Source: Escherichia coli O157:H7
GTDB taxonomy: Bacteria > Pseudomonadota > Gammaproteobacteria > Enterobacterales > Enterobacteriaceae
Assembly: GCF_013167455.1 (NCBI RefSeq)
Contig: NZ_CP038328.1
Length of the DNA: 64,000 nt
Direction: 5' to 3' (one strand)
How positions within the stretch are numbered: the stretch's first letter is position 1; the number at the start of each line of letters is the position of its first letter. The position numbers are program-made. Below are positions 30,001 to 33,000 of the stretch, piece after piece.

Positions 30001-33000
30001 TTCCCCCGGCGGCAGACCACTGGAACGATGCTCTGTATCCGCAGTGATGGCGGTGGTCACCAGACGGCTGCCTTCTCCGCTTCCGCTGGTCAGGCGCAGA
30101 CTGAAGCGCACGCCCTTCACCACCCGCGGCGTGTCCCATTTCACCTGCGCCAGATACTGGCCGTCAGCTGCGCTCACCTCCACCGTCAGGTGCTGCACTG
30201 CCGGAGGGATGACGCTGTTCAGGGTGCCTGACTGCGGCTCAAAGCGGGCACCGTTATCCACGATGGCTTCTTTTTCCGGTACGTGCTGCACCGCCGTGAT
30301 GGCAAAGGTGCCGTCCGTGTTTTCCCGGACGGAGACACAGCGGAACAGGCGACGGCGCAGTGACGGCAGGGATAGTCCCCATACACCGTATGTCTCCACA
30401 CCATCAGGCAGGGTGCTGACCTGTATCCGGTCCGGCGCGGGGTGTGCGGTGATGTCCACACTCACCGGCTTACCGCTGCCGTTAATCAGGTTCACCGTGG
30501 CGGCACCGGTCTCCGGCAGTGTCACCTCACGGTCCAGCGTCAGGGTGCGGCTGGCGGCATCGATGGACAGGACACGTCCGCCGGTCATGGTCCCGGCATA
30601 GTCGTTATCACAGATTTCAATAATGTCACCGGGTGTGTGACGCAGCCCCTGTGACCCAAGCGTGAAATCCACCGTCTGCGTTTCCAGCAGTCCGGTCTTT
30701 ATCACCCACAGCCCGGCACGGTGGGCCTGACCGCGACTGGTGCAGCCGAACGCATCCATCTTCAGCAGGTTGCGTCCGTAGCGCAGTATGGCTTCCGGGT
30801 CTTCCACCAGTTCCGTGGAGGTCTGCCAGCCGTTCTGCGGGTCGGTGTAATTCACCTCCACCGCCGTGTGGCGGTCCTTCAGGGCGCTGAAGCTGTAGCG
30901 AAACCCCACGCCGTTATCATCCACCACCACATCACTGTTGGTGTACGGCCACACCACATCCGACGGGCTGTCCTGAACGAACGTCAGCGTCTGGCCGTTC
31001 CATACCGGCATACAGCGCATCGCCGAGCAGAAATCACTGAGAACGTCCCACGCCTTACGCTGTTGTGACAGGTACGCATTAAAGGTCATCCGCGGCTCTG
31101 TGCCCCCGAAACCATCAGGGACCATCTGGTCGCAGTACTGCGCAATGGCATACAGCGCCCACTTGTCCACATCCGCCGCCCCCAGGCGTTTTCCCATGCC
31201 GTAGCGCGGGTGAGTCAGCATGTCCCACAGGCACCAGGCCGGGTTGTTGCTGTATGCCGGTTTCAGGCTGCCGTCCCAGATGCCGCTGTACGTGCGTTTT
31301 TCCGGGTCATAGTTTGACGGCACCTGGATGATGCGACCTCGGATATGGTAGTTCACCGTCATCTGCTGGCCACCAAACTGCTCCGCATCCACCTGCAGCC
31401 CCACAATCGCCGTGTTCGGGTAGCACTGTTTCACATCGATGATTTCGGTGTATGACGACCAGAGCGTCTTATTCTGCAGCTGGTCCGAGGTGCTGTCCGC
31501 CGTCTCCCGGACCATCCGGATGTTAAAAGGACGGGGAGGCAGATTATCCAGAATCACCGACGCCAGAAACTGCGAGGTGGTCTTGCCGTTAATGGTGACA
31601 TCCTTTTCCGTCACCCAGTTACCGTTACGCTGCAACTGAATCAGCAGTCGGACAGAAGAGGGATTACGGTCGCCCTTTGAGGTGGTCTCCAACAGTGACT
31701 GCACCCCGAAGGTGACCCGCAGGCGGTCAATGTTCGCGGATGTAATGGTGCGCGTCACCGGCTTTGCCTTCGTCACTTCCACGCCCAGTGCGGTTTCAGC
31801 TCCGGAAGACTCAAAGCCTTCAGGTGGTGTCTGCTCCTGCTCCCCGGCGCGCCAGACCGCTGTCACACCATGTATCACAGGATTACCGTCCGTGTCCGTC
31901 AGCGGGGTTTTGTTCACCAGGATACTCTGCAGCCCCTTCACCGGACCTTCAATCGGCCCTTCACCAATGGCATCAATCACGCTCATCATCTGCGTGGACT
32001 TAAGATTGTCCTTTGCCTCAACCGGCGTGTGCGCCCTGCCGCCACCTTTACCCATAATGTTCCTCTCAATTGGTATTATTAATCGCAGTGATAGGATATT
32101 GCACAGCTATTGCGCGATATCATCAGAACGCTGTTTGTTACCCTGTAACCAGCAAGCTCAGTCTGTTAACGGAATTAATGAGGGTTTTATGAAATGTAAA
32201 ATCATTGCTGCCATTGCCATGCTGACAGCAGCATCATGCGGATACGCAGCAGAACAGGAAGTCCCAATGAACCTTGTCAGTGCTGACGGAAAAGAAGTCA
32301 GCATTGGAAAAATAACCATTCAGGAGACCCCCTACGGTCTGCTGTTCACACCAGCCCTTCACTCTCTGTCTGAAGGCATTCATGGTTTTCATGTGCACGA
32401 AAAAGGAAATTGCGCCCCGGCACTGAAAGACGGAAAACCGGTCGCAGCATTATCGGCTGGCGGTCACTTTGACCCGAAAAACACCGGCAAACATCTTGGC
32501 CCCTGGTCTCCGGATGGACACCTGGGCGACCTCCCTGCGCTGTTCGTGACGCATGACGGAAAAGCGAACTACCCGGTCCTGGCCCCGAGACTGAACTCAT
32601 TAAAAGAGATTAAAGGGCGTTCTCTCATGCTTCATGCTGGCGGTGATAACCATCATGACCATCCGGAGCCCCTGGGCGGTGGTGGTGCGAGAATGGCCTG
32701 CGGCATCATTCAATAATCAGTCAGGTAAGGGGCGGGCCCCTTACCTTTATTCCTCAGGACGATAAATCCTTTCTCCCTGAAAAGAACGGCACATCCTCCC
32801 TCTCTGAGTTAATGTTTTTGTCGTGACATAAGAATAATTCCTTACACTCAATCTTCGTAACGCTCCCGCAGTTCCTGTCCGTGAGCACTGCGGGATTTTT
32901 TCGCTTTTATGCCTGCCGCCCGATAACCACCACCTTCCCGTCACCGCCTTCATCACGGGTACTGATGTCCTGGGAGATTCGCCGGGAGCCAACCAGCATT

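Follow-up and report, generated by a model that had tools for sequence, protein, structure and literature searches.

Phage-borne sodC genes and the locus in the window

Cu,Zn superoxide dismutases (SODs) encoded by prophages have been described in Salmonella and in Escherichia coli O157:H7. For the latter, D'Orazio et al. 2008 (BMC Microbiol 8:166) reported that a chromosomal sodC is accompanied by two more on prophages, sodC-F1 and sodC-F2, whose sole difference is nucleotide 335, which is either T (Leu) or C (Pro) (PMC2569942). Here we analysed a stretch of 64,000 nucleotides from E. coli O157:H7 (NCBI RefSeq assembly GCF_013167455.1, contig NZ_CP038328.1), referred to below as the window, in which a sodC gene at positions 32189-32716 lies between the tail genes I and J of a lambda-like prophage. 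The gene is already known, being annotated in every O157:H7 reference genome and characterised experimentally in 2008, and with a T at nucleotide 335 (Leu112) it is therefore the sodC-F1 allele. We believe, with a probability of about 95%, that the I-J gap of this defective, Sp4-type prophage carries a self-contained moron cassette for SodC-F1, which is expressed in the lysogen and aids its resistance to oxidative stress.

Much of what is known of the enzyme comes from the 2008 study. Tagged SodC-F protein accumulates in lysogens in log phase, in stationary phase and under anaerobiosis, a 299-bp fragment from upstream of sodC-F drives lacZ without the need for RpoS, the ratio of SodC-F to chromosomal SodC is raised in bacteria that are inside Caco-2 cells, and deletion of sodC-F1/F2 leads to poorer survival in 250 uM H2O2 (PMC2569942). 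Two enzymes can cleave the leader, signal peptidase I after Ala20 and signal peptidase II at the AASC lipobox, and the protein is split between periplasm and membrane according to LipoP prediction plus cell fractionation (PMC2569942). Purified SodC-F1 is a dimer of ~30.6 kDa with an activity of 19,380 U/mg in the pyrogallol assay, resists ethylenediaminetetraacetic acid (EDTA) and proteinase K, and has a melting temperature of 78-87 C (PMC2569942).

When comparing the window with described systems, we found the closest likeness in O157:H7 itself. The same gene stands in the same I-J context in strain Sakai, where it is annotated as sodC_1 (ECs_1120) of 'prophage Sp4, lambda-like phage'; sodC is also annotated in TW14359, and many E. 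coli O157:H7 chromosomes match the 1201 bp around the gene at 100% identity. The window nevertheless comes from a related but different strain, being ~99.4-99.5% identical to Sakai and TW14359 over 26-40 kb. The other Sakai copy of sodC has been placed in Sp10 by a 2021 genome comparison (PMC8046923).

The nearest relatives in another host are the Salmonella phage enzymes. SodCIII of Fels-1 (STM0924), 60.5% identical as a protein, likewise has a gene that lies antisense in the gpI-gpJ gap of a lambda-like tail operon, but its non-coding flanks are unrelated, its I-proximal spacer is just ~50 bp and it has no small-RNA remnant of the EcOnc22 type described below. SodCI of Gifsy-2 (STM1044; 58.8% protein identity) is also antisense inside the tail operon, although it sits between a lom-like gene and L and not between I and J. 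Parallels between SodCI and the E. coli enzyme as phage-borne, dimeric, protease-resistant and RpoS-independent proteins have been drawn before (PMC2569942); however, a virulence role has been demonstrated for SodCI, in Salmonella, and is at most putative for the E. coli enzyme in animals. Chromosomal E. coli SodC (PDB 1eso) shares the fold and the ligands of the window protein (E=1.4e-56), yet the mature proteins are 61% identical, and the chromosomal one is a monomer that depends on RpoS, is limited to stationary phase, stays fully soluble and is less stable (PMC2569942). Among phage records, we found only a handful of relatives of the window SodC.

In a wider sense the locus resembles the lambdoid 'morons' that Juhala et al. 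2000 are said to have described, for example lom and bor of lambda. The likeness lies in an extra gene between adjacent late genes, with its own signals, a distinct base composition and expression from the prophage. The difference is that most textbook cases follow the orientation of the late operon, whereas sodC is antisense to it and the left edge of its cassette supplies the ribosome-binding site of J.

A complete Cu,Zn superoxide dismutase gene antisense to the tail operon

The product of 32189-32716 is a complete Cu,Zn SOD, far beyond a chance match. The Pfam domain Sod_Cu (PF00080) spans residues 40-174 of SodC, corresponding to positions 3-133 of the 133 in the profile (E=3.9e-32, with 111.9 bits against a cut-off of 28.9), and PHROG 1975, a 'superoxide dismutase precursor' in the category moron, matches at E=9.5e-97. 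Bacterial Cu,ZnSOD structures match at E values of about 1e-62 to 1e-57; going by their PDB codes, we take these to be the enzymes of Haemophilus ducreyi and Yersinia, Salmonella SodCI and E. coli SodC.

The ligands were placed by alignment to human SOD1, the reference sequence being confirmed against PDB 1hl5/2c9v. Human SOD1 binds Cu through H46, H48, H63 and H120 and Zn through H63, H71, H80 and D83, and the aligned residues in SodC are H68, H70, H93 and H149 for Cu and H93, H102, H111 and D114 for Zn. Similarly, R168 (the catalytic Arg) and C171 (the second disulfide Cys) align with human R143 and C146, and in structure alignments the first disulfide Cys, C75, falls on the disulfide-loop Cys of the bacterial structures 1z9n and 2wwn. 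The initial annotation, made from the sequence alone, had proposed a complete periplasmic Cu,Zn-SOD with signal peptide and metal ligands, and each element of this is borne out: all seven ligands are in place and none is missing, the Sod_Cu domain is full length, the catalytic Arg and the disulfide Cys pair are kept, and Pfam, the bacterial structures and PHROG 1975 all name a superoxide dismutase. The predicted signal peptide is likewise supported, with export features at residues 1-20 and the mature chain of E. coli SodC (1eso) aligning to the window protein from residue 22 onward. The periplasmic location calls for one nuance, as the enzyme is exported but only partly free in the periplasm, its AASC lipobox sending a fraction to the membrane (PMC2569942).

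The I-J gap, 32056-32906 (851 bp), runs exactly from the J start codon (32055, minus strand) to the I stop codon (32907), and sodC is the single convincing gene in it. Open reading frames (ORFs), Pfam and annotation agree that sodC is antisense to both tail genes, as first proposed. The Prokaryotic Genome Annotation Pipeline (PGAP) and the Sakai annotation make gene I shorter, in a 582/579-bp version; upstream of I, on the same minus strand, stand K (JAB plus NlpC/P60), L, M and the tape-measure gene H. An Ail/Lom-family outer-membrane protein gene (~27915-28515, minus strand) lies directly downstream of J in operon orientation and is a second classical cargo gene of the tail region. The coordinates of the features are collected in Table 1.

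Table 1. Features of the sodC locus and of the loci compared with it (window positions unless residues or an accession are given)
Feature	Position	Strand	Basis or remarks
Tail tip/host-specificity gene J	28582..32055	-	ORF of 1157 aa; six GpJ/tail-tip Pfam domains; annotated gpJ
sodC cassette (upstream region, coding sequence, terminator)	32056..32800	+	745 bp; empty-site comparison with sodC-less phages
Candidate sodC promoter TTGGTA-16-TAGGAT, TG before -10	32070-32075, 32092-32097	+	lenient scan, 8 of 12
Candidate sodC extended -10, TGgTATTAT	32071-32079	+	lenient scan
sodC coding sequence, sodC-F1 allele (Leu112)	32189..32716	+	175 aa plus TAA; profile/structure matches; annotated sodC
SodC signal peptide	residues 1-20		Lys-rich start, hydrophobic core, GYA/A cleavage site
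SodC lipobox AASC	residues 14-17		Cys17
Intrinsic terminator of sodC	32723..32752	+	10-bp G+C-rich stem (32723-32746), 4-nt loop, TTTATT
EcOnc22/23/24-family small-RNA body plus terminator, putatively promoter-less	32801..32906	+	shared at 98% with sodC-less phages
Tail assembly gene I	32907..33587	-	ORF of 226 aa; Pfam Lambda_tail_I 1.5e-16
Prophage decay sites	~39430-39700, 43410-45340, 45600-47920, 52230-52580 onward		mapped from L003
Sakai I-J gaps (NC_002695.2)	2902691-2902930 (L007), 2166672-2166911 (L129), 2676622-2676861 (L130)

The gene has signals of its own. A ribosome-binding site, GAGGG, lies 4 nt 5' of its ATG (32189), and its terminator, which starts 6 nt past the stop codon, folds at -19 kcal/mol (z = -2.8). 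On the minus strand this hairpin has no T-run, and the tail operon should therefore not be stopped there. Upstream, a lenient scan gave the two promoter candidates listed in Table 1, and the published 299-bp promoter fragment (window ~31890-32188) covers both of them (PMC2569942). The pair TGTTTG...TGTAAC upstream of sodC was also considered as a PhoP box, but it was unconvincing by eye and we make no PhoP claim. Salmonella sodCI is regulated by PhoPQ. When the non-coding flanks of sodC-F, sodCIII (Fels-1) and sodCI (Gifsy-2) were aligned, no similarity and no conserved regulatory sequence appeared among them, and these flanks are therefore unusable for locating the promoter or for proving a common origin.

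Limits and spread of the sodC cassette

Related phages that lack sodC reveal an empty junction. In the sodC-less Stx2c (Shiga toxin 2c) phage L002, 131 unrelated bp replace 32056-32800 and both flanks align at 96-98%, and in alignments of Stx2c and Stx1a phages with the window the similarity runs as far as the J start codon (32055) and resumes at 32801. The initial annotation had taken the whole of 32056-32906 as the inserted unit; this is exactly the gap, but the segment whose presence varies from phage to phage is 32056-32800 only. It had also credited sodC with intergenic regions of its own, which holds for the terminator and for the lower G+C content (0.496 over the whole gap against 0.574 in J and 0.602 in I, with a minimum of 0.44 at 32050-32349) but not for the 3' region, which is largely the remnant of a small-RNA gene. 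At the opposite edge the ribosome-binding site of J, GAGAGGAA (minus strand, ~32062-32069), lies inside the cassette and is cassette sequence because the cassette abuts the J start codon.

The cassette plus the next 106 bp is 100% identical to the Stx2a phage EH2201, whereas the neighbouring stretches of J and I match that phage at 92.4% and 90.4%. Such complete identity within flanks that differ by 8-10% points to a recent lateral spread of the cassette. The cassette also occurs in complete Stx2a phage genomes. Of 5426 complete E. coli genomes, 546 carry it, with 723 copies in all and up to 5 per genome. Copies are near full length throughout (coverage of at least 80%), and 541 records carry the cassette at an identity of at least 99%; there are a few variants at 60-80%, and three copies are on plasmids. 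The I and J flanks accompany the cassette in 544 genomes. In viral contigs, 7 of 81 complete I-J gaps have the sodC form.

A different history, in which sodC is an old resident of the tail module and the sodC-less gaps arose when it was replaced by small-RNA modules, has to be weighed against these patterns. Fels-1 gives it some substance: sodCIII occupies the same I-J position in the same orientation, its coding sequence is 69.7% identical at the nucleotide level, similar to the 73-74% of I and J, and the J-proximal junction is common to Fels-1 up to window position 32063. However, the E. coli cassette is 100% identical across phages whose flanks differ by 8-10%, the non-coding flanks of sodC-F, sodCIII and sodCI have no similarity to one another, and sodC-less gaps are ~10 times commoner. 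In addition, the right-hand boundary of the cassette falls between the -10 box and the start of a small-RNA gene, which looks like the disruption of a unit already present. We therefore regard long residence as unlikely, though not negligibly so, and favour the arrival of sodC as a cassette; its I-J position may reflect one old event or the repeated use of a permissive site.

Expression in the lysogen and the weaker alternatives

If the gap carries a self-contained moron cassette, its working can be outlined largely from the published results. In a lysogen, with the late tail operon silent, sodC is transcribed independently of RpoS from a promoter within the 299 bp 5' of its ATG (PMC2569942), and transcription would end, to judge by the sequence, at the hairpin 32723-32752. 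The precursor is exported and processed to a soluble periplasmic or a membrane-anchored enzyme, and the stable SodC-F1 dimer binds Cu and Zn, dismutates superoxide outside the cytoplasm and thereby adds to the resistance of the cell against exogenous oxidative stress (PMC2569942). During lytic growth, an antiterminated late transcript would presumably cross the cassette antisense to reach J. This agrees with the lysogenic-conversion role that the initial annotation had suggested, which matches the literature on the same gene (PMC2569942) and is in keeping with the empty junction in related phages.

The state of the surrounding prophage is informative in this respect. It has a truncated major capsid gene, a frameshifted large terminase gene, a copy of ISEc8 (IS66 family of insertion sequences) by a small terminase fragment, and IS1203; Rfam also identifies an insertion sequence frameshift (ALIL) pseudoknot at 52814-52930. 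Despite this decay, the tail genes and sodC are intact. An intact sodC amid such decay fits selection acting via the host, and sodC is a textbook example of a phage moron outliving its prophage.

It might instead be argued that the enzyme serves the phage in lytic growth, protecting the dying host or the virion, given that sodC sits in the prophage late region and occurs in inducible Stx2a phages. We consider this very improbable, since sodC runs against the late operon, is expressed in growing and stationary lysogens that have not been induced (PMC2569942), and has been kept intact in a prophage unable to make heads. That the ORF is a decaying or silent relic without function, as the defective prophage around it and the lack of a consensus promoter in a strict-threshold scan might hint, is scarcely credible in view of an intact ORF with every catalytic residue kept, 541 records with the cassette at an identity of at least 99%, and published protein detection (Western blots), enzyme activity and a mutant phenotype (PMC2569942).

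Several points nevertheless count against the reading of the gap as a moron cassette that benefits the lysogen. The strict promoter scan of the gap found no match of 9 of 12 to the sigma-70 consensus, and the putative promoters at 32070-32097 score just 8 of 12. The event behind the two gap forms may have been a gain here or a loss elsewhere. From the experimental side, the RpoS independence of sodC-F was given as 'data not shown', and the H2O2 phenotype of the sodC-F mutants was not additive with that of chromosomal sodC (PMC2569942). The term 'virulence factor' would, for the E. coli enzyme, be an extrapolation from Salmonella SodCI. Finally, the EDL933 prophages were named CP-933R and CP-933V (PMC2569942), names that could not be matched with the Sp4 of Sakai for this locus.

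A small-RNA remnant and a variable slot between I and J

The 106 bp between the cassette and gene I belong to a family of phage small RNAs. Tree et al. 2014 reported the homologous Hfq-bound RNAs EcOnc22, 23 and 24 in the Sakai prophages Sp15, Sp14 and Sp11, which are ~85 nt long on Northern blots and destabilised without Hfq (PMC4104026). We found that their listed coordinates fall inside the I-J gaps of their Sakai prophages, and that the reverse complement of the EcOnc22/23/24 Northern probe contains TTAATCTTCATCGTTCTCTCCC, which is matched exactly, in the Sp15 gap (L007), by the body just in front of the hairpin. In the current Sakai record the listed Hfq peaks precede the probe site by ~130 nt, with an equal shift in all three copies. 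A version change of that record would explain the shift; the earlier record was presumably 128 bp shorter. A placement of EcOnc22-24 in the J-proximal part of the gap (positions 22-84, NC_002695.2) was rejected, as the Northern probe matches the I-proximal body instead.

In the window, the hairpin of this family, CCCGCAG...CTGCGGG, is found at 32865-32894 with a T-run at 32896-32901 on the sodC strand. A search of viral contigs for the same hairpin gave 120 loci (L009-L128), and in ~100 of these it lies 10-15 nt past the stop codon of I, antisense to I and J. The 81 complete I-J gaps fall into a few size classes: besides the seven in the sodC form (851/852 bp), 45 measure 235-263 bp, 25 measure 341-347 bp, 3 measure 913-923 bp and one measures 718 bp. 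The long gaps contain three or four related units in tandem, each consisting of an A-rich stretch, a promoter-like pair (often TTCACA-16-TATAAT, 11 of 12), a body of ~60-70 nt with TTAATCTTC, the hairpin and a T-run. This layout is the anatomy of small-RNA genes.

Sequences bearing sodC depart from this layout at the promoter. In sodC-less gaps the promoter-like pair is TTCACA-16-TATAAT/AATAAT, with a -10 that in most cases ends 63-75 nt before the hairpin, and the best hexamer pair there scores 8-11 of 12 in most sodC-less gaps as against 6 of 12 in every sodC-bearing gap. The segment 32801-32906 is therefore a remnant and not a working member of the family. Homology of the window to the 346-bp gap class starts two bases past the TATAAT of that class, and the cassette thus appears to have taken the place of the promoter of an EcOnc22-family gene, of which the body and the terminator are left. 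No Rfam family was detected in the I-J gap, either in the window at the gathering threshold or in a sodC-less locus at E<=1, and the EcOnc22/23/24 family as a whole is unannotated in RefSeq and absent from Rfam. The Pas small RNAs of a 2026 preprint were considered and set aside, as they are not concerned with the I-J site.

The I-J gap of lambda-like prophages is accordingly a variable slot, occupied either by the sodC cassette or by antisense small-RNA genes of the EcOnc22-24 family, one to four of them in tandem, and this bears on the competition of cargo genes and regulatory RNAs in phage late operons. The small-RNA survey adds this one modest point; it leaves the identity of sodC unchanged and says nothing new on sodC itself. 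A more speculative idea is that the cassette did more than silence the small-RNA gene: read-through past the weak U-tract (UUUAUU) of the sodC terminator to the second terminator at 32865-32901 may yield the Hfq-binding small-RNA body as a 3' extension of the sodC mRNA, possibly released from it. We rate this as unlikely; if true, production of the small RNA would be tied to sodC expression, and the I-J gap would more broadly be a hot spot for the exchange of antisense small-RNA genes and protein cargo such as sodC.

Two further elements were observed in sodC-less gaps. In L095 and 24 other viral loci (the 341-347-bp class), a further module precedes the EcOnc22-type unit at gap positions ~30-135, with a plus-strand terminator of its own, AACCCCGGTATC-AGCA-GATACCGGGGTT plus a T-run; the module could represent a further small RNA or a short ORF of 44-61 aa. 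In addition, a hairpin with a T-run stands on the tail-operon strand just before J (L002, 3198-3221, minus strand; L007 of Sp15, ~3741-3764), with a compensatory change between copies, GGCATCC/GGATGCC versus GGCACCC/GGGTGCC. Absent from the window, this hairpin looks like an I-J terminator which the antiterminated late transcript must read through.

Other features of the prophage and the window

The neighbours of the Sp4 sodC locus are tccP2, espV fragments, the serT tRNA gene and the hya operon. In the window, the prophage end abuts the tRNA-Ser gene serT (24418-24502, plus strand), and between serT and the tail fibre genes we found an espV fragment (~24600-24785) and a frameshifted tccP2 effector gene (~25100-26140), the latter with 141-bp tandem repeats at 25362-26120.

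The early/late-control region of the prophage contains an STnc100 small RNA, three tRNA genes (Ile, Arg, Arg) by the Q antiterminator region, and a hok/sok locus, identified by Rfam sok and an annotated hokD; the sites of this region are 55460-55650, 55730-55976 and 60701-60875, all on the minus strand. Within the prophage lysis region there is a gene for a PerC-family transcriptional regulator (~51715-52030, plus strand). PerC-family regulators can activate expression of the locus of enterocyte effacement (LEE) in enterohaemorrhagic E. coli (EHEC). In the chromosomal part of the window, Rfam identifies a full-length 5' leader of the cspA-type thermoregulator at 5170-5592 on the minus strand.

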